Of a DNA stretch of 64,000 nt, positions 5,259 through 49,380 are shown piece after piece. The stretch spans positions 185,420 to 249,419 of the forward strand of contig CAZFYA010000001.1 of NCBI GenBank assembly GCA_964523705.1. Direction: 5' to 3'. The DNA comes from an uncultured Gammaproteobacteria bacterium. Lineage in GTDB: Bacteria; Patescibacteriota; Microgenomatia; Levybacterales; UBA12049. A program made the translations under genes and the position numbers. Below the pieces are notes generated by a model. The model was not told where the DNA came from. It did not search any database and saw nothing but the letters and a program-made list of their open reading frames with translations. Numbering within the stretch: position 1 is the first letter of the stretch; each line of letters opens with the position of its first letter.

Positions 5259-7700
5259 CTAATTTTTTACTGTCTCTTTTTTATCCTCTTTTGGTATCTC
5301 CGCCTTTGCTTCAGCGTGCATTTTTTTAGGCTCCTCATGTTTCCTTCGAGTTGCATCAACCATGGTTTCTTCCTCTTCTTCTTTTTTGCCAAGTTCCGCA
5401 AATACTGTTTTTGCTGCTTCAAGTTTTGCTTTAAGATAAGCAATTACCTCGGTTTGAGAAAATCCTCCGATAAGAAGGAATGGCAAGATTGTTCCAACCT
5501 CCTCCATGCCTTTATTAACATTTTTATTATCAGATGAGGCTAAAAGATTAATTGTTTCATCAATTTTATCCATGTCTTCTTTTACCCATTCTTCTCTACT
5601 TCTTACTTTCCCCTCAAGAGCCTTTGGCACTTCTAGCTCATGATAATTTTCAGTCCAAATCTTTTTAACTGATTCATAGTCATCAATATTTACAGACTGT
5701 ACTCTGTTTACCACCGGGAAGGTTTCATGAGTTTCGCCAAGCTCTGTAATTCCTGCTTGTTGTAAAACCTGACTGGCAATACTACTTCCTCTTTCTTTTG
5801 CTTCTTTAAGTTTTTGCCTTAAATCCTCACTTATTTCTCCATCTCCCTTATCAACTGTTGCCAAAATGGATGTAGCCAGCGTATCCCCATTTGCTTTTGC
5901 TTTTAATAACTCCTCTTTAAGCTCGGTTGCTTTTTGCTTATCATAAGCTGAAGCGATTTTGTCCGGTTTTGCCAACTGGTTAATAACTTCTGTTAGCTTT
6001 GCATTTTCAGCTGCCTGACCAAGAACCTTTGAGGGCGAAGCACCTGAAGCAATGTTTGACGCTGTAATAACTGAATTTGCAAGATTATTTCCCTTAAGTT
6101 TTTCTGCAACCAATTGATTTTTAACCGATGAATATTTCTCTCGCTCGCTACTTGAGCTAATTCCCTTAGGATTAGCTATTTTTTCTAAAGTTTCATGCAT
6201 CTTAGCAACATTTTGTCTCCTGCTAAGGTCATGGGACATTAAAGAAGTTTCATATCTTGCAATATCTGACATTGTTGGAATACTAAGGTTTGATAAATTG
6301 GCAATACGGGCATTTGCCTGGTTTATGTTCATATTAGCTGCTTGAGACATAAAGCTTGCGGCATCTGCCTTAACTTCTGGGATCTCAATTTTTGCACCAA
6401 ACGGAAGTCTTTTAGCAAGCCCTGCACCAAACGGCTTAACTGGCAGTGGCTGCTGCGGAGGAGGAGATGAAGGATTTACTTTTGCCATTAAATTAGAGCC
6501 TCTGGCTGCTAATTGCTTAAACCAATTATCCTCTCCTTCGCTTAAGGAATTAATATAATCGAGAAATATCTGTAAAAGTAAAAAGGGAAGAATTATAACT
6601 ACCCAAAGCATAAGAAGAGCAACAATATATAGAGCAAAAGTATCTTTATTGTTAACACTATTTGTTAAAGATAAGATTTGCTGTGGTCCGCCAAGTAAGA
6701 TATTTATAGCTGTTGGGTAAATAACTTCTGTATTTTTAGGAAAGTTTAGAGGTATATTTGTGTCTGATCGCCATATTTGAACAAGACCGGCTAAAAATAT
6801 TGCAAATAATGGACCGTATAATAACCAGCGGAAAAATTCACCAACCCAAATTTTAGCTGTGTTTCGAATCGGCGAATAAAACAAAAGAAGCGGGAAAATC
6901 GGCGAGATGATAATAAAGAACCATAAGATTATTTTTCTTAAAATTAAAATTCCAGACATTACATAATACGTTAAAGCAGTTAGTTTTACCAAAAGAAGTG
7001 AGATAAAAACAGATTCATCAAATTCCGGTCCGTAAATTCTAAAACCTTGAAAATCCTTGTAATTAAAGCCGATATTTAAAAGGTTTTTTTGAGAAATACA
7101 ACTACTAACATTAGTAGTACTACAAGTTTGACTAGCTCCAGGCACTGTTAAGAAAAAGCCCTGAATAATATCCATTACTTGGTAAATAAACTGAATTAGA
7201 GCAAAGGAAAAAGTAATTAAAAGTACAATTAAAATAAATCTTGGAATAAAACGCATTACCGTAATGTTTTTACCTCTGGTAACAATCAGCACAAATGCTG
7301 TTCCTAGAATGAATAGAATTAAAAAGGCATAAGTAATATTTCTAATATTTGCCCAAAAGGCAGCAATTGGATTTTGTTGTCCTTCTCCTACATAAGACCA
7401 GTTATATCGCTGTAGTGTCCAATCCAAAAACTCTCCTGATCTGGCCCCTGCTTTTCCAACAAAAGTAACATCAGCATCTCTTATCCATTGTCCTTCAGGA
7501 CTTGTTTCATCAGCTAAAACTTCTTTTACAGGTTCTTGTTCTTCTGATAAAACAGGGGATTCAACTAAATCATAAGATTCTTCCTGTTGCTGTATATCTT
7601 GTTGAGGCATTGGTGTTTGAGCAGAAACAGAAAATGAACTAAACAGAAAGATTGTTAAAAATAAAAATGTAGTAAAAACCAGGGCAGTTAGTTTTTTCAT
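5259..7700 (-). CDS. Large polytopic membrane protein: signal peptide, about 100-aa exported domain, at least 7 TM helices, about 400-aa C-terminal charged coiled-coil domain; tentatively VirB6/TrbL-like
   Basis: Signal peptide MKKLTALVFTTFLFLTIFLFSSFSVSAQ. Multiple long hydrophobic helices fall in residues about 120-400. The C-terminal half is rich in K/E/A heptad-like sequence. It lies 5 nt downstream of the small 2-TM protein. Confidence 0.6.
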   Translation of the reverse strand: MKKLTALVFTTFLFLTIFLFSSFSVSAQTPMPQQDIQQQEESYDLVESPVLSEEQEPVKEVLADETSPEGQWIRDADVTFVGKAGARSGEFLDWTLQRYNWSYVGEGQQNPIAAFWANIRNITYAFLILFILGTAFVLIVTRGKNITVMRFIPRFILIVLLITFSFALIQFIYQVMDIIQGFFLTVPGASQTCSTTNVSSCISQKNLLNIGFNYKDFQGFRIYGPEFDESVFISLLLVKLTALTYYVMSGILILRKIILWFFIIISPIFPLLLFYSPIRNTAKIWVGEFFRWLLYGPLFAIFLAGLVQIWRSDTNIPLNFPKNTEVIYPTAINILLGGPQQILSLTNSVNNKDTFALYIVALLMLWVVIILPFLLLQIFLDYINSLSEGEDNWFKQLAARGSNLMAKVNPSSPPPQQPLPVKPFGAGLAKRLPFGAKIEIPEVKADAASFMSQAANMNINQANARIANLSNLSIPTMSDIARYETSLMSHDLSRRQNVAKMHETLEKIANPKGISSSSEREKYSSVKNQLVAEKLKGNNLANSVITASNIASGASPSKVLGQAAENAKLTEVINQLAKPDKIASAYDKQKATELKEELLKAKANGDTLATSILATVDKGDGEISEDLRQKLKEAKERGSSIASQVLQQAGITELGETHETFPVVNRVQSVNIDDYESVKKIWTENYHELEVPKALEGKVRSREEWVKEDMDKIDETINLLASSDNKNVNKGMEEVGTILPFLLIGGFSQTEVIAYLKAKLEAAKTVFAELGKKEEEEETMVDATRRKHEEPKKMHAEAKAEIPKEDKKETVKN

Positions 7701-7705
7701 AAATT

Positions 7706-7999
7706 TTAGCTAAATCCGGGAATTTGCAGTACATCAACTGCAATTACTTCAATAAAAACATAACCAAAAACCGCTAATAATAAGCCAATGATTGCATATA
7801 TAATATAGCTTTTTCCCTCTTTTAATCTATCGGGATTTCCTCTTGAGGTGGTAATTATATAACCACCATAAATAATAAAAATTAAAGCAACTCCACCAAT
7901 TAAGCCTAAGCCAATACCGTAAAACTTGGACACAAAGCCGGGAACTGTGTTTGGAATACAACCAAGCTCTGTCCAAGTCTCATTTACTTGACAGTTCAT
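7706..7999 (-). CDS. Small 97-aa two-TM membrane protein with N-terminal Cys pair; tentatively TrbC/VirB2-type pilin-like
   Basis: MNCQVNETWTELGCIPN, then helix FYGIGLGLIGGVALIFIIYGGYII, a short charged loop RGNPDRLKEGKS, and helix YIIYAIIGLLLAVFGYVFIEVIA. It lies between dnaJ and the 813-aa membrane protein with 26-nt and 5-nt gaps. Confidence 0.55.
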   Translation of the reverse strand: MNCQVNETWTELGCIPNTVPGFVSKFYGIGLGLIGGVALIFIIYGGYIITTSRGNPDRLKEGKSYIIYAIIGLLLAVFGYVFIEVIAVDVLQIPGFS

Positions 8000-8025
8000 A
8001 AATAAATCGTAGCATATTTTAGGGG

Positions 8026-8916
8026 TTAAAACCAGCTTCTTTTTTTGGTGTTTTCTTTGTCAAACTCCTCTAAAATTGACTTTTGTTTTGAGGTTAAATG
8101 TTTTGGAACAGTAACTTTAATTTTTACATAGTGGTCTCCCTTACCAGAACCTCTTACATGTTTTATGCCTTTTTGAGCAAGTCTGATAATGGTTTGCGGT
8201 TGAGTACCCGAGGGGATTCTAATTTTTACAATTCCATCAACTGTTTCAATTTCTTCCTGTCCGCCTAGAGCTGCTTTAGAAAATGGAATTTCTTTTTCCG
8301 AAACTACATCATATCCTTGTCTTTGAAATTTTTTATCCGGTCTAACCCTAACTATTACATCGTAATCTCCAAAACTTATCCTTGAACCATTATCAATGCC
8401 TTGGGGAATTTTTACAGTTTGCTCTCTCCCATCAATTGAAATTCTTTTCTGTACTCCTTTAACCGCTTCCATAAAATCAATAGTTAAAGAATAGGTTGGT
8501 TTTCTTTGTCGTCTGCCAAAAGGTGATGCTCCGCCAAAAAATTGCTCAAAAATCTCAAAAGGATCTGTAAATCCACCAAAATCAAAATCTCCGCCCTGAT
8601 TAGAAGTTGTATAGGTATAAGTAAAAGGACCATATTGTCCACCAAACGGACCGCCACCCCCAAATGGACCTTGTCCTCCTGGCCCTCCCTGTTCAAAAGC
8701 TTGATGCCCAAACTGATCGTAAGTTTGTCTTTTTTGAGGATCTGATAAAACTTCGTATGCTTTAGTTACTTCTTTAAATTTTTGCTCTGCTTCTTTTCCC
8801 TTATTTCTATCCGGATGGTACTGCAAAGCTAATTTTCGATAAGCTTTTTTTATTTCATCAGCCGTTGCTGATTTTGTAAGACCAAGTGTTTGATAATAAT
8901 CTTTTGTAGCTGCCAT
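8026..8916 (-). CDS. dnaJ: DnaJ-family J-domain co-chaperone, class II (CbpA-like; no CxxCxGxG zinc finger)
   Basis: J domain DYYQTLGL...YRKLALQYHPDRNKG with HPD motif, then a Gly/Phe-rich region and a C-terminal substrate-binding domain. It sits last in the hrcA-grpE-dnaK-dnaJ order. A TAA stop was verified. Confidence 0.8.
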   Translation of the reverse strand: MAATKDYYQTLGLTKSATADEIKKAYRKLALQYHPDRNKGKEAEQKFKEVTKAYEVLSDPQKRQTYDQFGHQAFEQGGPGGQGPFGGGGPFGGQYGPFTYTYTTSNQGGDFDFGGFTDPFEIFEQFFGGASPFGRRQRKPTYSLTIDFMEAVKGVQKRISIDGREQTVKIPQGIDNGSRISFGDYDVIVRVRPDKKFQRQGYDVVSEKEIPFSKAALGGQEEIETVDGIVKIRIPSGTQPQTIIRLAQKGIKHVRGSGKGDHYVKIKVTVPKHLTSKQKSILEEFDKENTKKRSWF

Positions 8917-8934
8917 AAACTCTATTATATTATA

Positions 8935-8959
8935 AAAGGCGCATACTCCTTGCGCCTTT
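8935..8959 (-). terminator. Intra-operon hairpin (9-bp perfect stem AAAGGCGCA/TGCGCCTTT, 7-nt loop) between the dnaK tail and dnaJ; possible attenuator/partial terminator
   Basis: The sequence aaaggcgcatactccttgcgccttt can be seen directly. It is flanked by A/T-rich sequence on both strands. Confidence 0.4.
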
Positions 8960-8985: not shown

Positions 8986-9201
8986 TTAGTTAACTACTTC
9001 TCCTTCAATTGGCTCGTCTTTATCTTTTTTTGAAGTATCTTCTTTTTTCTCACCGTTTGTTTTATCATCACTTGGTGCTTCTTGTCCTTCTTGTCCTTGA
9101 GCCTGTCCTTGTTTTTGATACATTGCCTGTCCTACTTTTTGCAAAGAATCTGATAATTCTTTAGTTTTTGTTTCAATCTCTTCCTTGCTTCCCGTATCCA
9201 A
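8986..9201 (-). other. dnaK: C-terminal 71 codons of DnaK (lid helices and acidic/Gln-rich tail), in the same frame as dnaK but separated from it by an in-frame TAG plus one codon
   Basis: Translation ILDTGSKEEIETKTKELSDSLQKVGQAMYQKQGQAQGQEG...EGEVVN matches the canonical DnaK C-terminus (cf. E. coli ...[23 protein letters not shown]...). Both ORF end coordinates are congruent mod 3. Confidence 0.7.
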
Positions 9202-9204
9202 AAT

Positions 9205-10902
9205 CTATTTTAGCTCCTCTATCTTTTCTTCGACTTCTTTTTTAAGGTTTTCATCGACTTTTCCTTCTCCTTCTCTTAGGGTTTTTTCAGCGGTAAAAAT
9301 AAGTGAGTCTGCCTGGTTTCTTATCTCTACTTTTTCCTTTTTCTCTAAGTCCTCTGTAGCATGAGCTTCAGCTTCCTTAGTCATTCGGTCAATCTCATCC
9401 TTATTTAAACCTGTTGAGCCGGTAATTTTAATACTTTGTTCTTTTCCGGTTGCCTTATCCTGTGCTTTAACATTTAAAATACCATTAGCATCAATATCAA
9501 AAGTAACTTCAATTTGAGGAACTCCTCTTGGTGCCGGTGGAATTCCGTCTAAAACAAATCTTCCCAAAGACTTATTATCATTTGCCATTGGTCTTTCTCC
9601 TTGTAATACGTTTATTTCAACTTGGGTTTGATTATCCGCAGCTGTTGAAAATACTTGGGATTTTGAAGTAGGAATAGTTGTATTTCTGTTAATTAAAGGT
9701 GTTGAAACACCACCTAGGGTTTCAAGTCCTAAAGTTAGAGGAGTTACATCTAAAAGCAATACGTCTTTTACTTCTCCGCCTAAAACTCCTGCCTGAACTG
9801 CTGCGCCAATTGCTACTACTTCATCAGGATTAACTGACTTATTAGGTTCTTTGCCAAAAAACTTAGTGACTGCTTCAATTACTTTTGGCATTCTGGTCAT
9901 TCCACCGACTAAAATTACCTCATCAATGTCTGAATTTTTCTTTTTTGCGTCTTTTAGAGCAAGTTCAACCGGTTTTAAGGTTTTTTGAATTAAAGGATCA
10001 ACAATTTTTTCAAGATTAGCTCTTGTCATCGTCATGGTTAAATGAAGCGGGCCGTCTTTTCCTTGAGTTATAAAAGGCTGATTAATCTGAGCTTCCTGGG
10101 CAGTTGAAAGCTCAATTTTTGCCTTTTCCGCTGCTTCTCTAAGTCTTTGCAAAGCTTGTGGGTCTTTTCTTAAATCAACATTGTTTTCTTTTTTAAACTC
10201 TTCAGCAAGGTAGTCAATTATTTCCTGGTCAAAATCATCTCCTCCTAAGTGTGTATCTCCATTGGTTGATTTTACTTCATAAACTCCCTCACCTAATTCA
10301 AGAATTGAAATATCAAAGGTTCCACCACCTAAATCATAAACTGCAATTGTGTGGGCGTTTTTTTTGTCTAAACCATAGGCAAGTGCTGCTGCTGTTGGTT
10401 CGTTAATAATTCTTAATACTTCAAGTCCGGCAATTTCTCCTGCTTGTTTAGTTGCTTGTCTTTGTGAGTCATCAAAATATGCAGGAACTGTAATAACAGC
10501 CTGAGTTACTTTTCCACCTAAATAGCTCTCCGCATCGCTTTTAATTTTTTGTAAAATTTTAGCCGATAATTCTTGTGGAGTAAAAGTTCTTCCCTCAACT
10601 TCAACAATTGCCATACCGTCTCTTCCGGATTTAATTGCATAAGGAAGCCACTTAGCATCTCTTTGTACTGATTCATCAGTAAACTTTTTACCCATTAGTC
10701 TTTTTATTGAAAAGATTGTAGTTTTTGGTTTTAAAACCATTTGTCTTTTAGCAACTTCTCCTACAACGTGAGTAATCGGATCAACAACCGATGGAATTAC
10801 ATTTCTACCTTCTCTTGAGTGAATAACCTTAGGATTACCACCCTCCATTACGGCAACACATGAATTTGTTGTACCTAAATCAATTCCTATTATTTTTCCC
10901 AT
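9205..10902 (-). CDS. dnaK: Molecular chaperone DnaK (Hsp70), terminated at residue 565 by TAG
   Basis: [36 protein letters not shown] and the substrate-binding domain. It ends ...[11 protein letters not shown] where full-length DnaK continues. Confidence 0.9.
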
Positions 10903-10979: not shown

Positions 10980-11438
10980 TTACATTGCTTTTCCAACTAT
11001 AACTTGTGCAACTCTTAAAACTCTATCGTTTAACATATATCCTGCTTTTACTTCCTCAACTACTTTTCCGTCTTCTCCCTCAACCGTTTGGACACATTCC
11101 ATTGTTTCAGGGTTAAAATCTTTTCCTAAAACATCCATTTTTTTAACTCCTTCATTTTCAAATGATAGTAAAAGCTGGTTTATACTCATAATTACTCCTT
11201 CGTCTTGAGTATGTTTTTCAGCCAGCATTAAATTATCAAGAGCAGGTAAGATTCGAAGGAGAAGCTGCTTATTTGCAAGTCTTATCCATTCATTTTTATC
11301 TTTTGCTACTCTTTTTTCTAAATTTTGATAATCTGCCAATGTACGTTTTAATTGATGTCTTAATTTATTTAACTCTTCTTCTGTTTTTTCTGTTTCTTTT
11401 TTTGTTTCTCTTGTCTCTTTTGATTTATCCTTTTTCAT
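10980..11438 (-). CDS. grpE: Nucleotide exchange factor GrpE
   Basis: Lys/Glu-rich N-terminus, coiled-coil (LADYQNLEKRVAKDK) and a C-terminal beta-domain. It sits between hrcA and dnaK. Confidence 0.85.
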   Translation of the reverse strand: MKKDKSKETRETKKETEKTEEELNKLRHQLKRTLADYQNLEKRVAKDKNEWIRLANKQLLLRILPALDNLMLAEKHTQDEGVIMSINQLLLSFENEGVKKMDVLGKDFNPETMECVQTVEGEDGKVVEEVKAGYMLNDRVLRVAQVIVGKAM

Positions 11439-11450
11439 TTGTTTTTTTAT

Positions 11451-12182
11451 TTACCAACCCCTGGCAATTTCTGAAATTAAATTTTTAAAATACCTGACTG
11501 TTGGTATAACGTAATTATAATTTAACCTGTTTGGTCCTAAAACTCCAATCTCCCCTGATAAATGCATTGGTGTTTCATAATGTGTAAACACAAATCCATA
11601 TGGTCCTTGAAGTTTTGGCCCCAGTTCTTCTCCTAAAAGAACATGGACATCTCCATCATCTATTTGACTATTAAATATACTGTTAAAGTACTCAAACTCG
11701 TCTAAAACTGATAATAAGTTTTTTGTTATATCTATGTCAAAAAACTCCGGTAAATCTAAAATATTTGCGTATCCTGAGCAGAAAAAATCTCCTTCATTAG
11801 TCGTTGCAATTGCTAACGATCTGGTTTTTTCTGCCAAAGATCTTGTTAATTGTTTTAAAAACTTATCTTCTCTGTCTCTTAAGTCCCAAACTTTTTCTTT
11901 TAGTAAAACTTCTTCTGCTGTTGAAAGTTCTTTTTCCTTCATCAGCTGGTTTACGTAAAACTTCATCCCCTCTGGCGTTGGAACTCTTCCGGCTGAAATG
12001 TGTGGTTTTTTTAAATATCCAAGTTTAGTTAACTTAACCATCTCATTTCGAATTGTTGCCGGAGAAGCCGACAAATTATGTTTTTTCTCTAAAGTCTCTG
12101 AACCAACTGCTTCTGCAGTTGCAATATATTCCTCAATAAGACTTTTTAAAATTTCTACCTGCCTTTGTGTTAAATCATGCAT
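11451..12182 (-). CDS. hrcA: Heat-inducible transcription repressor HrcA (short form)
   Basis: N-terminal winged-helix region LTQRQVEILKSLIEEYIATAEAVGSETL. It is the first gene of the grpE-dnaK-dnaJ operon, with a CIRCE-like inverted repeat upstream. Confidence 0.8.
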   Translation of the reverse strand: MHDLTQRQVEILKSLIEEYIATAEAVGSETLEKKHNLSASPATIRNEMVKLTKLGYLKKPHISAGRVPTPEGMKFYVNQLMKEKELSTAEEVLLKEKVWDLRDREDKFLKQLTRSLAEKTRSLAIATTNEGDFFCSGYANILDLPEFFDIDITKNLLSVLDEFEYFNSIFNSQIDDGDVHVLLGEELGPKLQGPYGFVFTHYETPMHLSGEIGVLGPNRLNYNYVIPTVRYFKNLISEIARGW

Positions 12183-12223
12183 GATTTAAGTCAAATAAAT
12201 CACAAAATAGTTTAAATTTTGGA

Positions 12224-12250
12224 TTAGCAGTACTATACCACGACTGCCAA
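12224..12250 (-). promoter_or_regulatory. CIRCE-like HrcA operator (minus-strand reading TTGGCAGTC-N9-TACTGCTAA) overlapping a sigma70-type promoter (TTGACA-N18-TATAGT) for hrcA
   Basis: The 9-N9-9 inverted repeat matches the CIRCE consensus TTAGCACTC-N9-GAGTGCTAA at 7/9 in each arm. The -35 TGTCAA is at 12256-12261 (revcomp) and the -10 ACTATA at 12232-12237 (revcomp). Confidence 0.5.
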
Positions 12251-12320
12251 TTTCTTGTCAAGGGGGTAATTTTATGCTTTTTTTATTTAAAAAAATTCTC
12301 TACAATAGGGAAAGATAAAT

Positions 12321-17067: not shown

Positions 17068-17247
17068 TTTTTATATCCCTTAAGCGAAAATGTCTTCTCG
17101 TCTTTAGAAAATTTAAGAGAATACTGTATGAAATTTAATCATAAATACAATTACCAAAGACTACATAAAGCGCTTGATTACAAGACACCCAAAGAAGCTA
17201 TATTAGAATACCTTAAAGAGAAAGGAGAAACTGTACGGTATCTATAG
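17068..17247 (+). mobile_element. Degraded insertion-sequence relic: C-terminal fragment of a DDE/rve-type transposase
   Basis: The frame reads ...MKFNHKYNYQRLHKALDYKTPKEAILEYLKEKGETVRYL*, matching the conserved integrase-core C-terminal motif YNxxRxHxALxYKTPxE of IS3/IS481/IS30-type transposases. There is no intact upstream ORF. Confidence 0.5.
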
Positions 17248-17320: not shown

Positions 17321-17506
17321 ATGTCAAATTTAGAAATTCAAAGAAACGCAAGGAACTTAATGGCTGACTCTAAAGAGTTTACAGCTTATTCCAGAAACAA
17401 GAAAGACAAGACTGATTTAACTCCGAATTGTTCAGTTCCGAATTGCGCATTGCCTTGTAAACCACCACCATCACCACCTGGTTGTAAGGCATGTAGAAAA
17501 TCATAG
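17321..17506 (+). CDS. TOMM/LAP-type RiPP precursor peptide (61 aa): hydrophilic leader plus Cys/Ser/Thr/Pro-rich core TPNCSVPNCALPCKPPPSPPGCKACRKS
   Basis: Small ORF with a perfect promoter and RBS, immediately upstream of the YcaO, SagB-dehydrogenase and M16-peptidase genes. It has 5 Cys and 5 Ser/Thr in its last 28 residues. Confidence 0.7.
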   Translation: MSNLEIQRNARNLMADSKEFTAYSRNKKDKTDLTPNCSVPNCALPCKPPPSPPGCKACRKS

Positions 17507-17558: not shown

Positions 17559-18884
17559 TTGTTACATATGAAAAACTCTAAATTAGAGAAAGATATGTTG
17601 GCAAATTCTCTAGAAAGAGCTGCTAAATTTGCAAACAATAGTAATTTTATTACAAATATTTATAAGGTTCCCCTATATAATGATGACCCTAAAATATTCG
17701 CCTATTCAGCAACGTACAAACTTAAGTATAAAAATAACGAAGATGTAGCGAATGGATTTTCTTTCTTTAAAAATATTGCCTTGATGAGAGTACTGGGAGA
17801 AGGAGTAGAACGCTATTGCCTAGATCATTTTTCTCCTAAAAACACCTGTTTTTGTAAGGAAAGTGAAGTTAAAACCTATCATTTAAACCCACTTAAAATA
17901 ATTGCTTTTTCATCTAAGCAACTTAAGAACAATAATTTTAATAAGTTTAGAATAGATGATACGTCTCTGTTTGGATGGACTAAAGGAGTATCTCTTACTA
18001 AGAAAAAAGATGTCCTTGTACCTTCTCAACTAGTTATCTTTAACTATGTAACGTTAAAAAATGAACCAAGAATCTTATCCTCAATCTCTACAGGCGCTGC
18101 ATCTGGATTATCGCTAGAAGATGCTTTATATAGGGCAATCTGTGAAATCGTTGAAAGGGATGCATTTATGATAAGCTACCTCAATAAACTTAATTCTCCA
18201 CGATTAGATCTGTTATCAATTGGTGATCCTGCAATCAATAAAATTCTTAATACCTATGCTCGGTATAAACTAGAACTGGCTGTAATTGACATTACAACTA
18301 ATTTACAAATTCCAGCATTTGTCGCCATCACTTTGGACAGAACCGGTATAGGACCTGCTACATCCGTAGGACTTAAAGCAGGATTTAATATTAAAGATGC
18401 TATAATTGGAGCAATTGAAGAATCTCTAATGACTAGGTCTTGGCAACGAGACAACCATACATATAATAATCTTAGGGAACGAAAGCAAAAAAAAGAGATC
18501 CTTCAAGAATTAACAGAAAAAGCTTGTTTCTGGTTTTCTATAGATAAAATCAAGCACCTTGATTTTTGGCTAAATAATAAAAATGTTAAAAAAATTAATA
18601 TCAAAAAATATAAATACTCGAATAGCAATCTAAAAAAAGCGGTTCAAAAATTAACAGCAAAAAAAATGGAAATTATATATGTAGATATAACAACTGATAA
18701 GATTAAACAGTATGGCTTTACTACGGTAAAGGTAATTATCCCTGGATTACATCCTCTACATTTGGACGAAAAACATCCTTATTGGGGAGGAGAACGATTA
18801 TATAATGCTCCTATTGAGATGGGCTTGTTAAAAACAACTAAACATGAAAATGAATTAAATAAAATTCCTCACCCATTCTTATGA
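17559..18884 (+). CDS. YcaO-domain cyclodehydratase (SagD-like, TOMM D-protein)
   Basis: YcaO signature SISTGAASGLSLEDALYRAICEIVERDAF (GxAxG...ExxERD), 441 aa. It has a TTG start with an ATG 3 codons later, and a 4-nt ATGA overlap with the next gene. Confidence 0.8.
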   Translation: MLHMKNSKLEKDMLANSLERAAKFANNSNFITNIYKVPLYNDDPKIFAYSATYKLKYKNNEDVANGFSFFKNIALMRVLGEGVERYCLDHFSPKNTCFCKESEVKTYHLNPLKIIAFSSKQLKNNNFNKFRIDDTSLFGWTKGVSLTKKKDVLVPSQLVIFNYVTLKNEPRILSSISTGAASGLSLEDALYRAICEIVERDAFMISYLNKLNSPRLDLLSIGDPAINKILNTYARYKLELAVIDITTNLQIPAFVAITLDRTGIGPATSVGLKAGFNIKDAIIGAIEESLMTRSWQRDNHTYNNLRERKQKKEILQELTEKACFWFSIDKIKHLDFWLNNKNVKKINIKKYKYSNSNLKKAVQKLTAKKMEIIYVDITTDKIKQYGFTTVKVIIPGLHPLHLDEKHPYWGGERLYNAPIEMGLLKTTKHENELNKIPHPFL

Positions 18885-19666
18885 AAACAAATAACACTAA
18901 GATATTATTGGAAAAAATTGAAGGCAAACAATCTGTTTCAGACAAATTTCATTCTTTTACAAATAACAAAATTTTAGGTGTTAAAATAAACAGAAAATAC
19001 GCTCCCCCTCAATCATGGATAAAAATTCATTTTAAGACTTATCCCCGTCTAAACAGAATTAAACTTAATAGTAAGATAGAAAAAAATAAAACAGGTAAAT
19101 TATCCAACATAATTGAGCAAAGAAAATCTTTTAGAAAGTTTTCAGGTCTATCTATCACAAAAAACGATCTTTCTTATCTATTACTTTATTCATGCGGATT
19201 GATAAGGTTGGGAAAATCATTCGATGATTCCAGAAGGCCTTATCCATCTGCAGGGGCGAGATACCCTTTGGAAATATACCCACTTATACTAAAGTGTGAA
19301 GAAATAGAAAATGGTCTATATCATTACAATGTTAAGGAACATTCATTAGAATTATTGTTAAAAGAAAACTTAAGCAATTGGCTTCTCAAAACTACTGGCG
19401 GAGAAAATTGGATGACAAAAGCTTCTGTGATATTTATAATTACAGGCGTTCTAGATAGAACAAGAGTAAAATATGGAGACCGAGGATATAGATATGTTTT
19501 AATTGAAGCAGGTCATGTGGGACAAAATATTTGTCTTTTATCAACAGACTTGGGATTAGGAAGTTGCGCCATAGGAGGATATATAGATCAGGAGGTAAAT
19601 AAACTATTAGATATTAATTTACAAAAAGAAAATACGTTATATATGTTTGCTGTTGGTAAATTATGA
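18881..19666 (+). CDS. SagB-type FMN-dependent dehydrogenase (McbC-like, nitroreductase fold) for azoline-to-azole oxidation
   Basis: RRPYPSAGARYPLEIYP, GLYHYN, and KYGDRGYRYVLIEAGHVGQNICLLSTDLGLGSCAIGGY. There are ATGA overlaps on both sides. Confidence 0.8.
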   Translation: MKTNNTKILLEKIEGKQSVSDKFHSFTNNKILGVKINRKYAPPQSWIKIHFKTYPRLNRIKLNSKIEKNKTGKLSNIIEQRKSFRKFSGLSITKNDLSYLLLYSCGLIRLGKSFDDSRRPYPSAGARYPLEIYPLILKCEEIENGLYHYNVKEHSLELLLKENLSNWLLKTTGGENWMTKASVIFIITGVLDRTRVKYGDRGYRYVLIEAGHVGQNICLLSTDLGLGSCAIGGYIDQEVNKLLDINLQKENTLYMFAVGKL

Positions 19667-20955
19667 AAATTTCTTATAATAAATACAATCTTCCAAACGG
19701 ACTTACTGTGATTCTTCAGCCCATGCCCTTTGTAAATTCAGTAGTTGTAAATGTTGTAGTGGGAGCAGGTCCACGTTTTGAAACTAAAAAATCTGCTGGT
19801 CTTGCTCATTTTCTCGAACACATGCTTTTTGAAGGGACAAAAAGGTTTCCTACAGCAAAGGACGTTGCCAGAAGAATAGAAAAAATCGGAGGCACTAGCA
19901 GGGCTTTTACTGAAAAGGAATACGTCTCCTATTATACAAAAATCCCAAAACAACATCTTAATGTAGCATTTGATTATTTGTCTGATATTCTATTCAATTC
20001 CTTATTAGAAAGCGACGTAATTGAAAAGGAAAAAAGAATTGTAATAGAGGAGTTGAGAAGATCTGAAGATAATCCAGAAGTAAATATATGGAATTTATGG
20101 CTAGAGTGGATATGGGGCAAGAATCAATCACTTGGTCGTTCTACTATGGGCGACGAAGTAACAATAAAAAAAATAACTAAACAAAAACTGCAAGATTATC
20201 TAGATATGCTTTATCATCCCTCAAATATGGCAATCGTAGTTACAGGAAACTTTTCCATAAAAGAAGCAAAAGAATATATTTTGAAATACTTTGGGAAAAC
20301 TCGATCAAAAAGTGTTCCACTCTTTAAAAGAGTAAGGTTTAATCACAAAAAAATACATACTAAAATTGTCCAATCAGATACAAAACAGGCACAACTGATT
20401 CTTGGATTTGTAACAGATATTTCTTATCATCACAAAGATCGTTTCTCAATACGGGCTATTGCAGATGTTTTAAGTGGAGGAATAAGCTCGCGACTTTCCA
20501 ATAAGCTTATTTATGAATTGGGAATCGCATATTCAGCGTGGGCATACACGTGGATTTTTTCTGATAACGGATTATTCTGTATTTCTGGTGGGTTTTCTCC
20601 TCGAAACTTAAAAAATGCAATAAAAGTGATCTTGGAAGAATTAAATAAATTAAAAAAGCGAAAGGTTGCAGAAACAGAATTAAAAGAAGCAAAAGAAAAA
20701 AACATAGCAGAACTCTTTTTTTCTTTGGAAACACCAGATGCAATGGCAAGTTTATATTCATCACAACAAATTACAGAAAAACAAATCATGACTCCAGAAA
20801 AAATTTCAACAAAAATAGATAAGGTAACAACAGAAGATATGTTGAGAGTGGCTAGAAAATATTTTAATCTTGAAAATTTAAGATTAATAATACATGGTCC
20901 TTTAAAAGAAAAGGAGATAATTTCTATAGAAAAGTTATTAAAACAAATGTCTTAA
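19663..20955 (+). CDS. M16-family (pitrilysin/insulinase-like) zinc metallopeptidase, candidate leader peptidase
   Basis: Inverted zinc motif HFLEHMLFEGT plus the downstream Glu in SRAFTEKEYVSYY, 430 aa. Confidence 0.8.
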   Translation: MKISYNKYNLPNGLTVILQPMPFVNSVVVNVVVGAGPRFETKKSAGLAHFLEHMLFEGTKRFPTAKDVARRIEKIGGTSRAFTEKEYVSYYTKIPKQHLNVAFDYLSDILFNSLLESDVIEKEKRIVIEELRRSEDNPEVNIWNLWLEWIWGKNQSLGRSTMGDEVTIKKITKQKLQDYLDMLYHPSNMAIVVTGNFSIKEAKEYILKYFGKTRSKSVPLFKRVRFNHKKIHTKIVQSDTKQAQLILGFVTDISYHHKDRFSIRAIADVLSGGISSRLSNKLIYELGIAYSAWAYTWIFSDNGLFCISGGFSPRNLKNAIKVILEELNKLKKRKVAETELKEAKEKNIAELFFSLETPDAMASLYSSQQITEKQIMTPEKISTKIDKVTTEDMLRVARKYFNLENLRLIIHGPLKEKEIISIEKLLKQMS

Positions 20956-26649: not shown

Positions 26650-27717
26650 ATGTTAAATATTTTAAATTCCATATTTTTTCCTTTTTTAACTGCTTTTTTA
26701 GCAACTATTGTTTTTGTTCCCCTATCTTTAATTCTTATTAAAAAATACAAATTAATCGATGATCCTAAAAAAAGAAAACACCCGGCAATACTGCATAAAA
26801 AACCTATTCCAAGAGGCGGAGGAATTCCTTTATTTTTAGGTTGTCTTTTAGCCGGAATTTTTTTTCTTCCTTTAACTAAAATAACAATTGTTTTGTTTCT
26901 AGCTTCTTTTGTCTCTCTTGTTATAGGAGTAATGGATGATAAATTTGACATCTCTCCTTACTTTAGATTTTTAATAAACATCGTTGTTGCAGTTGCTGTT
27001 GTTTATGCAGGAGTAAACATTGCCTTTATTACTAATCCCTTAGGAGGAATTCTGCACTTAGATAAAATCGCAATTCCTTTTTTAGATACTTCTCTTTCCT
27101 ATATTATTGCTGTTATCTGGATTGTTTGGATTATGAACATGCTTAATTGGAGTAAAGGCGTTGATGGACAAATGCCGGGTATTGTTGCAATTTCTGCCAT
27201 TATAATCGGCCTTTTAAGTCTTCGCTTTAATGCAACTGATCCATCAACAATGATTAGCACCACTCTTTCTTTTATTGTTGCCGGGGCGTCGCTAGGATTT
27301 TTAATTTTTAATTTTTATCCTGCAAAAATATTTCCAGGATATGGAGCAACATCAATTTATCTTTTGCTTGCTGTTGCTTCAATTCTGTCTTCTGCAAAAT
27401 TAGCAACTGCAATTTTGGTTATGGGAATTCCAATGATTGATGGTTTATTTACCATTTTTAGAAGAATAATAAGTGGAAAATCTCCTTTTAGACATGATAA
27501 CAAACACCTTCATCACCTACTTTTGAAAAGGCACTGGGGACAGCGAAGAATTGCGTTGTTTTATTGGTTAATTTCTGCTATGCTTGGAGCAATTTCTTTG
27601 CTTCTGTCTAGCAAGGGTAAAATATTTGCCATAATAATGCTAGCAATTATTGTAGGAGGAGGAATTTTATTTCTTCAGCTTACAATAAAGCATAATGAAG
27701 ATGAAAATGGCGTTTAA
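26650..27717 (+). CDS. Polyprenyl-phosphate N-acetylhexosamine-1-phosphate transferase (WecA/MraY family, GT4-like PNPT)
   Basis: VIGVMDDKFDISP (DDxxD), NMLNWSKGVDGQMPG, and 10-11 TM helices. Confidence 0.7.
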   Translation: MLNILNSIFFPFLTAFLATIVFVPLSLILIKKYKLIDDPKKRKHPAILHKKPIPRGGGIPLFLGCLLAGIFFLPLTKITIVLFLASFVSLVIGVMDDKFDISPYFRFLINIVVAVAVVYAGVNIAFITNPLGGILHLDKIAIPFLDTSLSYIIAVIWIVWIMNMLNWSKGVDGQMPGIVAISAIIIGLLSLRFNATDPSTMISTTLSFIVAGASLGFLIFNFYPAKIFPGYGATSIYLLLAVASILSSAKLATAILVMGIPMIDGLFTIFRRIISGKSPFRHDNKHLHHLLLKRHWGQRRIALFYWLISAMLGAISLLLSSKGKIFAIIMLAIIVGGGILFLQLTIKHNEDENGV

Positions 27718-28642
27718 TATTTTAAGGCTCTTAAGACCAAGACAATGGATTAAAAACTTGGCAATTTTTACAGCAATTATTTTTGCCGGTGTACTTTTTG
27801 AAAAATCCATATTTGATAAAGTTTTTTTAGGCTTTATTGCCTTTTGTGGTTTATCTTCAGCAACCTATGTAATTAATGATTTATTTGATATTAAAAAAGA
27901 TAGACTTCACCCTTTTAAAAAATTTCGACCTTTAGCAAAAGGCGATGTTCCAATTCCGCTTGCAGTTATTATTGCAGTAATTTTAATTGTTGGCTCATTT
28001 TTATTAAGTCTTTCCATTACCCCAACATTTACCATAGTTGCTGTTGTTTATCTTGCACTTCAATTTCTTTATTCGCTTAAGTTTAAAATGGTTGCGGCCT
28101 TAGATATTTTAATAATTGCTCTAGGTTATATTTTAAGAGTATACGCAGGAGAGTTTGCCAGCGGATACCATATTTCCGTATGGATGTTATTAACTACTGT
28201 TTCTTTTTCTCTGTTTTTAGCTGTTGGTAAAAGAAGATCTGAGCTTACTCTTCTTTCCAATAGTAAAGTCTCAAATATTACAACTGTTAGACAATCGCTT
28301 TCTCGTTATTCAGAAAAGCTTTTAGATATTTATGCTTCTATGTTTGCTACATCAACTTTTATTACTTATTCTCTTTTTACTTTCTTAGAAAATCCAAAAG
28401 GAATAAAATTAGCACTTGGCGTTTTTATGCCGGATTTCCTACCTGTTTTTTTCCAGCGAAAATGGTTAATGATAACCATAATTCCTGTTATTTATGGAAT
28501 AATGCGTTATCTTCAAGATATTTATGAAAAAAATGAAGGAGAAAGTCCAGATAGAGTTTTGCTTTCCGATAAACCACTTTTAACAACAGTTATTATTTGG
28601 TTATTGCTGGTTATTTTTATAATCTACCTTATCGGCCCTTAG
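27695..28642 (+). CDS. UbiA-superfamily prenyl-phosphate phosphoribosyltransferase homolog (decaprenyl-phosphate 5-phosphoribosyltransferase-like)
   Basis: N-terminal RPRQWIKNLAIFTA, Asp-rich NDLFDIKKDRLHP, a second motif at YILRVYAGE, and 8-9 TM helices. A TAG stop was verified. Confidence 0.55.
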   Translation: MKMKMAFNILRLLRPRQWIKNLAIFTAIIFAGVLFEKSIFDKVFLGFIAFCGLSSATYVINDLFDIKKDRLHPFKKFRPLAKGDVPIPLAVIIAVILIVGSFLLSLSITPTFTIVAVVYLALQFLYSLKFKMVAALDILIIALGYILRVYAGEFASGYHISVWMLLTTVSFSLFLAVGKRRSELTLLSNSKVSNITTVRQSLSRYSEKLLDIYASMFATSTFITYSLFTFLENPKGIKLALGVFMPDFLPVFFQRKWLMITIIPVIYGIMRYLQDIYEKNEGESPDRVLLSDKPLLTTVIIWLLLVIFIIYLIGP

Positions 28643-46847: not shown

Positions 46848-47511
46848 TGTTTATTATTTTAATAAATTCCCGGGGATCAAGACTTGCTCCTCCAACTAAC
46901 ACTCCGCTTATCATATCTTTTTTTGTAAAACTATTAACATTTTCCGAGTTAACACTTCCACCATAAATTACTTTTTCTACATTACTATTCTTTTCCATTA
47001 TTTTTTCTGCTACTTCATTAGCGTTTTTAGGAGTATCGGGTTTCCCGCTTCCGATTGCAAAAACAGGTTCATAAGCAACTATCTTTACCTCTTTTGGAAC
47101 AAAATCCTGTGCATCTTGAACGCAAAATATTGGTTTAAGACTATTTTTAATCGCCTTTTCTACTTTTTGCAAAAGAGCATCATCTTCTTCACCAAAGTTT
47201 TCTCTTCTTTCCGAATGACCAATAATGACAAATTCTGCAAATTCTCTAATTTGCTCCGCATTAATTTCTCCCGTATATGCTCCTTTATCAAACTGGGAAA
47301 CATTTTGTGCCCCTAGTTTAAATGGAAAATTATTTTTCTCCAAAGATGATTTAAAGCATGACAAAAGCGTAAAAGAGGGACAAATAATTATTTCTTTGTC
47401 TTTTAAACCCTCAAGCTCTTTCTTAAAATCAAAAACGTCTTTAAGCCAGTTATTGGCTTCTTTTTTTGTTTTGTTTGATTTCCAATTAGCTATAATTAAT
47501 AATTGCCCCAT
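46840..47511 (-). CDS. tpiA: Triosephosphate isomerase
   Basis: IIANWKSN, VIIGHSERR, AYEPVFAIGSG, GGSV. Confidence 0.85.
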   Translation of the reverse strand: MGQLLIIANWKSNKTKKEANNWLKDVFDFKKELEGLKDKEIIICPSFTLLSCFKSSLEKNNFPFKLGAQNVSQFDKGAYTGEINAEQIREFAEFVIIGHSERRENFGEEDDALLQKVEKAIKNSLKPIFCVQDAQDFVPKEVKIVAYEPVFAIGSGKPDTPKNANEVAEKIMEKNSNVEKVIYGGSVNSENVNSFTKKDMISGVLVGGASLDPREFIKIINNV

Positions 47512-49380
47512 GTGATATCATTATACGGTATGAATAAAGACTTTCTCAACAACCTAAATCAAGAGCAAAAACAAGCAGTTTTAAATACAACCGGCCCAAT
47601 GATTATACTCGCAGGAGCCGGATCCGGAAAAACAAGAGTTTTAACTTATAAAGTTGTTTGGTTAATTTCTCAAAACATCACCAACCCTGAAAACATTCTT
47701 ATGATAACTTTTACCAATAAAGCTGCTAATGAAATGAAAGAAAGAGTTGAAAAATTTCTTAATAAAAACAGTTTAAGCGTAAGATCAAAGCCACTAATCT
47801 CAACCTTTCATTCCCTTTGTGCAAAGTTGCTTAGAATTGAAGGAAAATATGTTGGTCTTGATTCAAATTATTTAATTTATGATGAGCAAGATCAAAAAGA
47901 AGCAATAAAAGAAGTACTAAATTTATTAAACATTTCAAATAAAGAATTTAAGCCTGCTTCAATTTTAGCAACAATTTCACAAGCTAAAAATGAGCTGATT
48001 TCAGAAAACGAGTATCCAAATTATGCCAGAGGACATTTTCAACAAATAGTTGCTAAGGTTTATCATGCTTATCAAAACCTTTTAAAAGAAAACAATGCTT
48101 TAGATTTTGACGATTTACTTTTAAAAACAATTGAGCTTTTTAAAAATAACCCTGATGTTTTGGAAAAATATCAAAATAAATTTAAGTATATTTTAGTTGA
48201 TGAATACCAAGATACTAATCATGCTCAATACGTGCTAACAAAAATGCTGTCTTTGAAATGGAACAATCTTTGTGTTGTCGGTGATTTTTCTCAAAGCATA
48301 TATAGCTGGAGAGGGGCTGATTTTCAAAACTTAGTAAAATTTAATAAAGATTTTAAAAACGTTAAAACTTTTAACCTATCACAAAACTATCGCTCCACAC
48401 AAAAAATACTGGATGCATCTTTTTCAGTAATTTCTAAAAACAGCAGTCACCCGATTCTAAAGCTTTGGACCGAAAACAAAAGCGGAGATGAAATTATGCT
48501 TTTTGAAGCAAGAAATGAACATAATGAAGCAGAATTTATTATTGAACAAGTTGCTTACTTAAAATATCAGCAAAAAGAACTTAAGTTTTCAGATATCGCA
48601 ATTCTTTACAGAACAAATGCTCAATCAAGAGTTATTGAGGAGGTTTTTTTGCATCATGGAATTCCTTACGTTTTAATTGGAGGAACAAGATTTTATGAAA
48701 GAAAGGAAATTAAAGATATACTTGCTTATTTAAGATTAATAGCAAATCCAAAAGATTCAGTTTCAAAAAAAAGAATTGAAAAACTAGGTAAAAAAAGATT
48801 TGATAAATTCTTAGAATTTAAAGATAAAAATTATGAAATGGATGAAACTATAAAAATTATGGATAAAGTAATTAAAGCAACTGATTATTTATCTTTTTAT
48901 GACGAAAAAGATGAGGAAGACTTACAAAGATTGGAAAATATTAAAGAATTAAGATCAGTAGCAATTGAATTTCCCAAAATTAATGAATTTTTAGAAAACG
49001 TTTCACTAGTTGAACAAGAACAACTTCCAGATCATCCTCAAAAAGATAAAAAGAAAAAAAATGCCGTAAATTTAATGACACTTCACGCGGCAAAAGGATT
49101 AGAGTTTTCAATTGTTTTTATAATCGGAATGGAAGAAGGACTTTTTCCGCACAGTAGATCCTTAATGAATAAGGACGAACTTGAAGAAGAAAGAAGACTT
49201 TGTTATGTTGGAATGACAAGAGCAAAACAAAAACTCTATTTAACTTATTCTAAAAAGAGATTGTTTTTTGGACAAAGAACAAATAATATGGTTTCAAGGT
49301 TTATTTTTGACTTACCGGAAGAAATTCTATCAAATAATCTTTCCTTTTCGCAAAAGGAAGATGTTCCTGAATTTTTATGA
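47503..49380 (+). CDS. UvrD/PcrA-family ATP-dependent DNA helicase
   Basis: Walker A AGAGSGKTRVLTYKV, motif II VDEYQDTN, and C-terminal helicase motifs (LHAAKGLEF, VGMTRAK). Confidence 0.85.
   Translation: MPHVISLYGMNKDFLNNLNQEQKQAVLNTTGPMIILAGAGSGKTRVLTYKVVWLISQNITNPENILMITFTNKAANEMKERVEKFLNKNSLSVRSKPLISTFHSLCAKLLRIEGKYVGLDSNYLIYDEQDQKEAIKEVLNLLNISNKEFKPASILATISQAKNELISENEYPNYARGHFQQIVAKVYHAYQNLLKENNALDFDDLLLKTIELFKNNPDVLEKYQNKFKYILVDEYQDTNHAQYVLTKMLSLKWNNLCVVGDFSQSIYSWRGADFQNLVKFNKDFKNVKTFNLSQNYRSTQKILDASFSVISKNSSHPILKLWTENKSGDEIMLFEARNEHNEAEFIIEQVAYLKYQQKELKFSDIAILYRTNAQSRVIEEVFLHHGIPYVLIGGTRFYERKEIKDILAYLRLIANPKDSVSKKRIEKLGKKRFDKFLEFKDKNYEMDETIKIMDKVIKATDYLSFYDEKDEEDLQRLENIKELRSVAIEFPKINEFLENVSLVEQEQLPDHPQKDKKKKNAVNLMTLHAAKGLEFSIVFIIGMEEGLFPHSRSLMNKDELEEERRLCYVGMTRAKQKLYLTYSKKRLFFGQRTNNMVSRFIFDLPEEILSNNLSFSQKEDVPEFL

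Follow-up and report, generated by a model that had tools for sequence, protein, structure and literature searches.

An in-frame TAG codon in the distal part of a Levybacteria dnaK gene, possibly a recent nonsense substitution

Results

The dnaK reading frame and its interruption

The 64,000-nucleotide stretch of DNA analyzed here (contig CAZFYA010000001.1; referred to below as the window) carries on its minus strand a dnaK gene whose reading frame is interrupted by a single TAG codon. The complete frame (8986..10902, minus strand) comprises 638 codons, including the internal TAG, and is closed by the natural stop TAA (8986..8988), the position of which is the same as in relatives. The TAG is codon 566 of 638 (9205..9207; the plus strand reads CTA, with A at the diagnostic base 9207) and is located within the minus-strand codon series GAG GAG CTA AAA TAG ATT TTG GAT ACG. 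Codons 1–565 (9208..10902) encode the nucleotide-binding domain, the linker, the β-sandwich substrate-binding domain, and, of the lid, helices A and B with the greater part of helix C, while the in-frame sense codons past the TAG (8989..9204) encode the rest of helix C, helices D and E, a linker of low complexity rich in Q, G, and E, and the conserved terminal motif DEPIEGEVVN. The downstream frame reads I-L-D-T-G-S-K ... E-G-E-V-V-N, that is, ILDTGSKEEIETKTKELSDSLQKVGQAMYQKQ...DEPIEGEVVN up to the TAA. The uninterrupted frame of about 630–650 codons expected of a DnaK is therefore broken at codon 566. The product made if the TAG terminates translation is that of the open reading frame (ORF) 9205..10902, 565 amino acids (aa) long with the C-terminus VEEKIEELK, and it is already present in the protein collection as P0003, encoded on an NCBI contig of 252,136 bp. 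An initial annotation of this DNA had placed the end of DnaK at VEEKIEELK and the TAG at 9205–9207, which both the minus-strand sequence and the 565-aa ORF reproduce. It had also stated that the same frame runs on for 71 codons; the continuation stands but the count does not, as the frame consists of 565 codons, a stop, 72 sense codons, and a second stop, or 639 positions.

The 638-aa reading is a member of the DnaK/Hsp70 family (PF00012), with colinear ATPase domain, linker, β-sandwich, and helical lid. Its residues 1–607 align with residues 1–615 of Escherichia coli DnaK (E ~1e-216), in the same domain order as in the canonical E. coli structures (PDB 2KHO, 4B9Q, 7KZI; colinear over 1–607). 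It is 83–95% identical, over 92–100% of the query, to the 119 full-length Levybacteria DnaKs listed, and the best-matching named proteins are annotated as Candidatus Levybacteria/Levyibacteriota or Patescibacteria (candidate phyla radiation, CPR). The nearest homolog, P0001, is 635 aa long and 95% identical. The full-length Levybacteria homologs measure 630–653 aa, in agreement with the earlier remark that 638 aa is a normal length for DnaK. The downstream frame is not open by chance, because a 72-codon open stretch has a probability of ~0.007 at the stop frequency of 6.6% found over all frames of the window, and because 59 of 69 residues in the tail of P0001, the terminal DKDEPIEGEVVN included, are identical in the window. 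The homolog alignment shows these codons to be conserved, as anticipated when they were first recognized as the DnaK lid and tail.

The gene belongs to a heat-shock operon with the order hrcA-grpE-dnaK-dnaJ, which is that of Levybacteria relatives. The closest relative locus, L001, is a 74-kb JGI contig with the same gene order, in which DnaK is 95% identical at the amino acid level and the DNA 85.5% identical. In the window, hrcA at the operon head (11451..12182, minus strand) and grpE upstream of dnaK (10980..11438, minus strand) are intact and have L001 orthologs of identical length (243 aa, Pfam HrcA, and 152 aa, Pfam GrpE, respectively). Analogously, the downstream dnaJ (8026..8916, minus strand) is intact and encodes 296 aa, as does its L001 ortholog, which contains DnaJ and DnaJ_C domains. 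Between dnaK and dnaJ, about 30 nt past the natural TAA, lies a G+C-rich hairpin, AAGGCGCA-N7-UGCGCCUU, followed by U-rich sequence (8935..8959, minus strand; -15.5 kcal/mol, z = -3.55) and conserved in L001 and in the ENA locus L003. This hairpin, which is absent from the list produced by a simple terminator scan of the window, looks like an intrinsic terminator or attenuator. It follows the full-length ORF and not the TAG; therefore, the transcript architecture is that of a full-length gene. Despite the presence of hrcA, no CIRCE operator (TTAGCACTC-N9-GAGTGCTAA, with up to 3 mismatches) was found anywhere in the window, including 12183..12320; this lineage may have a divergent HrcA operator.

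The ancestral codon

DNA alignment with L001 (JGI) and L003 (ENA) places AAG, a lysine codon, at the position of the TAG (CTAAAAAAGATTTT versus CTAAAATAGATTTT in the window), and the Logan locus L002 encodes an identical 635-aa protein with Lys at this position. Because the relative has AAG at the same codon, the lesion is a single A>T transversion, AAG to TAG (CTAAAAAAG to CTAAAATAG), and T at plus-strand position 9207 would restore the lysine codon. The comparison with relatives thus indicates that the ancestral codon is AAG (Lys). None of the 119 full-length Levybacteria DnaKs (0/119) ends at the position of codon 566. This column is occupied by G in 49 homologs, A in 23, K in 16, S in 15, E in 8, D in 6, and T and N in one each; K is present in all nine of the closest homologs inspected (P0001, P0002, and P0004–P0010). 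With a sense codon in related dnaK genes, the interruption is specific to the window. The initial annotation had named, as an outcome contrary to its reading, orthologs that naturally end here and downstream codons that are not conserved; neither was observed, since no homolog ends at this codon and the invariant tail residues are kept.

It should be mentioned that in L001 (11692..11698), and at the same site in L003, Leu-Lys-Lys is written CT[A AAA AAG], which places an in-frame A_AAA_AAG, the -1 slippery heptamer of E. coli dnaX, exactly at the TAG codon. A -1 frameshift site was considered here and rejected: the heptamer is not conserved, most Levybacteria having G, A, or S at this position, and homology continues in the zero frame. 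Given this non-conservation across Levybacteria, A_AAA_AAG in the relatives is taken as a coincidence of AT-rich codon usage.

A separate observation is that the A>T change converts AAAAAAGATTTT to AAAATAGATTTT (9196..9213, minus strand) and so lengthens an inverted repeat from 4 to 5 bp. The extension is compatible with a quasi-palindrome templated mutation; being too short in AT-rich DNA to carry weight, it is noted as a curiosity.

Conservation of the sequence past the TAG

The part of the gene downstream of the TAG shows no decay: in comparison with L001 and with the 119 homologs, it contains no further stop and no frameshift, and its constraint is not relaxed. The ratio of nonsynonymous to synonymous substitution rates (dN/dS) relative to L001 takes values of 0.039 for the codons upstream of the stop and 0.126 for those downstream, the latter being composed of 0.062 for the helical part and 0.28 for the hypervariable linker, with dS of ~0.5–0.6 throughout. 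The sole indel relative to L001 is an in-frame 9-nt difference within the Q/G/E-rich linker. Residues L583, S584, L587, K589, G591, E630, P631, E633, G634, and E635, which are invariant in the 119 homologs, are all present in the window, and the downstream helical segment carries residues that are common among relatives. For a decaying pseudogene, multiple lesions and a dN/dS near 1 would be expected; this candidate was rejected in view of the downstream value of 0.126 and the retention of the invariant tail residues. Because the downstream part shows no decay, the lesion is either very young or not real. The substitution pattern suggests that the stop is very recent when set against the divergence from the nearest relative sampled; the alternatives are a stop that is not real or a tail that continues to be translated.

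Use of TAG in the window and possible translation of the tail

TAG is a regular stop codon in this DNA. The 62 natural ORF ends in the window consist of 50 TAA, 8 TGA, and 4 TAG codons. The UbiA-family gene (27695..28642) ends in GGC CCT TAG, and no further in-frame stop occurs in the 78 nt shown past it; therefore, TAG must terminate efficiently in this organism. In two other TAG-ended genes, the Pfam domains SH3_3 and Excalibur finish 3–5 residues before the stop, and a gene for an 813-aa protein ends in TAG at the same length as its ortholog. A six-frame scan of the window for frames open on both sides of a stop revealed no other interrupted gene; the remaining cases of TAG are antisense frames or adjacent genes that share a frame by chance. 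Genome-wide reassignment of TAG, either as a sense codon or through pyrrolysine-type decoding, has nothing to recommend it beyond the single in-frame TAG in dnaK. It is opposed by the four natural ORF ends, which domain boundaries and ortholog length fit, and by the failure of the scan to reveal any other gene coding on both sides of a TAG. Nowhere in the window does TAG behave as a sense or pyrrolysine codon, so that reassignment is effectively refuted there, and we give it next to no credence for the genome as a whole. The initial annotation had noted the CCT-TAG end of the UbiA-family gene and the use of TGA and TAA, and had considered global recoding unlikely; all of this agrees with our counts, to which three further TAG-ended genes can be added.

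Site-specific readthrough of the UAG, whether programmed, leaky, or mediated by a suppressor tRNA, would yield full-length DnaK, possibly together with a short isoform. It would account for the intact and conserved downstream frame, which looks as if it were still translated, although a recent origin of the stop explains this intactness equally well. The stop is preceded by an AAA lysine codon and followed by A, and the AAA-TAG-A context is not known to be among the strongest E. coli termination contexts. Against readthrough stand the lack of conservation of the stop, which is absent from all 119 homologs and replaced in them chiefly by G, A, K, S, E, or D, and the use of TAG as the end of four other genes, of which the UbiA-family gene lacks a nearby back-up. 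No tRNA gene, and hence no suppressor tRNA gene, is present in the 64-kb window. The 111 nt past the stop form no notable RNA structure (-13.6 kcal/mol, z = -1.66; 12 of 200 shuffled sequences fold as well), so that a downstream context promoting readthrough, raised earlier as something to look for, is not apparent. Programmed readthrough is known, for example, from the A1 protein of phage Q-beta. The dnaK gene resembles such systems in having an in-frame stop followed by a conserved, intact coding extension; however, programmed readthrough stops are kept across relatives and usually have a defined context, whereas the dnaK stop is unique to one genome and is followed by no stimulatory structure. 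Because TAG ends four genes, no other gene is interrupted, and the window offers neither a tRNA gene nor a structure past the stop, recoding and programmed readthrough are unsupported, and the dnaK TAG does not represent a new decoding mechanism. Readthrough that is specific to this site, in whatever form, appears quite improbable.

The tail could also be translated separately. A possible restart site (9199..9219, minus strand) consists of GAGGAG (9214–9219), a spacer of 12 nt, and a TTG codon (9199–9201) two codons past the TAG. If used, it would split the gene into DnaK(1-565) and a separate 71-aa C-terminal peptide, which could associate with each other. The Shine-Dalgarno-like GAGGAG and the TTG are indeed present, and their spacing is similar to that of the start of dnaK itself (GGAG, 10 nt, ATG). 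Nevertheless, the restart is unsupported: GAGGAG and TTG simply encode residues E-E and L of the conserved protein; the corresponding sequence of L001 is GGAGGA, with TTA as the Leu codon; and exact-product look-ups returned no 71-aa or 45-aa product on record. We know of no precedent for an Hsp70 lid made in two pieces and regard such an arrangement as very improbable.

Quality of the assembly and other records of the strain

If dnaK is counted as one continuous frame, coding sequence makes up 94% of the window; a mobile-element remnant accounts for the sole long stretch that does not code. Apart from dnaK, all 61 ORFs are uninterrupted, and no frameshift was found in the window despite many homopolymer runs. 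The 17 orthologs that the window has in common with the syntenic L001 are equal or almost equal in length. A long-read indel artefact was rejected as the source of the TAG, given that the frame is unchanged across it and that the neighboring genes are intact.

Such artefacts do occur in related assemblies. Levybacteria-type dnaK genes split into 4–5 ORFs are found in L005 (1585..3331), L006 (978..2920), and L007 (950..2851), from ENA assemblies ERZ25039527, ERZ25039549, and ERZ25039477, respectively; in L005 and L006, grpE and/or dnaJ are also shortened or fragmented. These pieces look like the result of uncorrected long-read indel errors, and they supply the protein collection with spurious short Hsp70 proteins. 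They resemble the window in that a Levybacteria-type dnaK on a long contig is called as pieces, but differ in that the gene is broken into 4–5 of them, as is typical of indel errors, whereas the window has one substitution and every neighboring gene intact. The short DnaK fragments found on long contigs (P0139, P0146, P0281) come from these frameshift-ridden ENA assemblies. For this reason, we rejected the idea that in-frame stops recur in Levybacteria dnaK, the short pieces stemming from such assemblies and not from TAG codons.

The same strain is present in sequencing run SRR10812148, from which the 1229-bp Logan contig L004 matches positions 7187..8415 of the window with 100% identity. This contig was found through an identical 97-aa pilin and ends 790 bp before the TAG. 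Exact-product look-ups with the 565-aa DnaK, P0003, GrpE, DnaJ, and the 71-aa and 45-aa ORFs yielded no second copy of the strain, the pilin being the sole match. A 28-mer that was exact except for N at the mutated base had no matches in genome_contigs, metagenome_contigs, or viral_contigs, and a codon-degenerate 47-mer had none in genome_contigs and metagenome_contigs. Both are weak negatives, as the degenerate pattern ought to have found the JGI protein P0005 at the least. Protein searches for fragments of the same strain, made with the last 129 and the last 217 residues of the C-terminus, gave best matches of at most 82% identity.

Other features of the window

Between dnaJ and clpB, the minus strand encodes the 97-aa pilin, which is of the type IV secretion system (T4SS) type (PF18895), and the 813-aa protein mentioned above, which has a weak TrbL/VirB6 match (5259..7999). 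The arrangement of the pilin and the TrbL-like protein is kept in L001 (12894..15634).

The segment 15251..21000 is absent from the syntenic L001 and is therefore an insertion. On its plus strand, a precursor-like ORF of 61 aa with a Cys/Pro-rich C-terminus (...CSVPNCALPCKPPPSPPGCKACRKS; 17321..17506) is located directly upstream of a YcaO cyclodehydratase gene (17559..18884; E 1.6e-55), which is followed by genes for a nitroreductase-family protein (18881..19666) and an M16 peptidase (19663..20955). By its gene content, the group looks like a small azol(in)e cluster for ribosomally synthesized and post-translationally modified peptides (RiPPs). It adjoins a transposase remnant, an rve_3 integrase fragment (17128..17247, plus strand). 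RiPP clusters in CPR genomes may merit separate attention.

The sole Rfam match at gathering score in the window is RF03531 (n00280; 49159..49256, plus strand, 69.7 bits), located inside the ORF 47503..49380. According to Rfam, this family is a Clostridioides difficile small RNA (sRNA) included in a helicase gene; the match is probably due to conservation of the coding sequence and not to an sRNA.

Discussion

The predicted truncated product

In the alignment with E. coli DnaK, which has a constant offset of +8 (query residue 503 corresponds to E. coli residue 511) and is gap-free up to the stop, the TAG takes the place of residue 574, so that codon 566 of the window is a stop where the E. coli protein has a sense codon in helix C. 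In E. coli DnaK, helix C contains Asp561, the C-D loop contains Lys581, and residues 585–595 extend from helix D to the D/E junction (PMC3709807). The stop thus falls within lid helix C, beyond helix B and in the last 11% of the protein; therefore, DnaK(1-565) would keep the ATPase domain, the linker, the β-sandwich, helices A and B, by which the substrate cleft is covered, and the greater part of helix C. Judging from the alignment, it would lose helices D and E together with the conserved tail.

Lid-truncation constructs of E. coli DnaK were reportedly made by Slepenkov et al. in 2003 and by Buczynski et al. in 2001. In Pseudomonas putida, dnaK cannot be deleted, yet cells with DnaK lacking the last 41 or 66 residues are viable; these truncations were transposon-derived and recovered as suppressors of a toxin, and mutation of the tail motif lowered competitive fitness and thermotolerance (PMC7918210). 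Truncations of the DnaK lid mainly affect substrate binding and refolding, with a weak effect on ATP hydrolysis (PMC3315512). Like DnaK(1-565), the P. putida and E. coli alleles lack the distal lid and tail and keep the ATPase and substrate-binding core. In contrast, these alleles were made or selected in the laboratory, whereas the putative truncation in the window, with 73 positions lost (including the stop), belongs to an environmental genome. The literature on such truncations being mixed, a 73-residue truncation is, by analogy, plausibly tolerated and probably costly.

A recent nonsense substitution or an error

The dnaK TAG is a lone premature stop that interrupts a conserved gene in a metagenome-assembled genome, an ordinary event whichever way it is explained. 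The choice among error, nonsense allele, and site-specific readthrough, as framed by the initial annotation, was sound, with readthrough now left without support. In our opinion, the TAG is an authentic, very recent nonsense substitution (AAG Lys to TAG) in the main dnaK of this Levybacteria population, a reading to which we assign a probability of roughly 0.55. We infer that the base is real in the reads from the occurrence of a one-base lesion amid an otherwise clean 64-kb sequence that does not have the pattern of a broken long-read dnaK. Furthermore, only 5.6% of the possible substitutions in dnaK create a stop, and a random error would have a chance of about 1 in 9 of falling in the distal 11% of the gene, whereas this is the part where truncation is tolerated and where surviving real alleles are expected. 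The downstream sequence without decay (dN/dS 0.126) fits a young allele.

Several points weigh against a real allele. The absence of downstream decay would be predicted equally by a base-call or consensus error, and dnaK is among the most conserved genes. Because all 119 full-length homologs retain the tail with its invariant residues, its loss should carry a cost. DnaK variants with intermediate lid truncations behave abnormally, and a lid-truncated Hsc70 of Caenorhabditis elegans loses all folding activity (PMC3315512). Finally, among the contig and protein records of SRR10812148, none covers dnaK codon 566.

Under a sequencing, consensus, or assembly error, the organism would have AAG (Lys) and a normal 638-aa DnaK. 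This explanation is possible, though in our judgment the less probable one. It is favored by the lesion being one base, by 72 downstream codons that are intact and constrained like the rest of the gene, by the high conservation of the gene with its universally kept tail, and by the lack of a second record of the strain confirming the TAG. It is disfavored by the remaining 64 kb, which are 94% coding and free of error signs, with no frameshifts despite homopolymers, as well as by the low share of stop-creating substitutions and the 1-in-9 chance of reaching the tolerated distal segment noted above.

If the nonsense substitution is authentic, one A>T transversion would have turned AAG into TAG, and the change could be fixed or still polymorphic in the population. 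Ribosomes would then stop at codon 566 and release DnaK(1-565). This product is expected to be a partly active Hsp70 that still hydrolyzes ATP and binds substrate, but with changed substrate kinetics and a reduced capacity for refolding. Full-length DnaK would arise only from the usual trace of near-cognate readthrough.

A further scenario is that this CPR bacterium naturally lives on a lid-shortened Hsp70, either fixed or as two isoforms, an abundant DnaK(1-565) and a little full-length protein made through leaky UAG decoding. We consider this quite unlikely; if true, it would amount to a natural test of the extent to which an ultra-small cell can do without the Hsp70 lid and tail.

Biological significance

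Neither an authentic base nor an error would have implications for recoding or the genetic code. Should the base be erroneous, the consequence is one of annotation alone: the organism would have a normal 638-aa DnaK and not the 565-aa protein of the database. If the base is real, the window would hold a natural DnaK allele without helices D and E or the tail, in an organism with a minimal chaperone set. Such an allele would be a modest piece of evidence as to which Hsp70 parts can be spared in nature, matching the viable truncations of P. putida.

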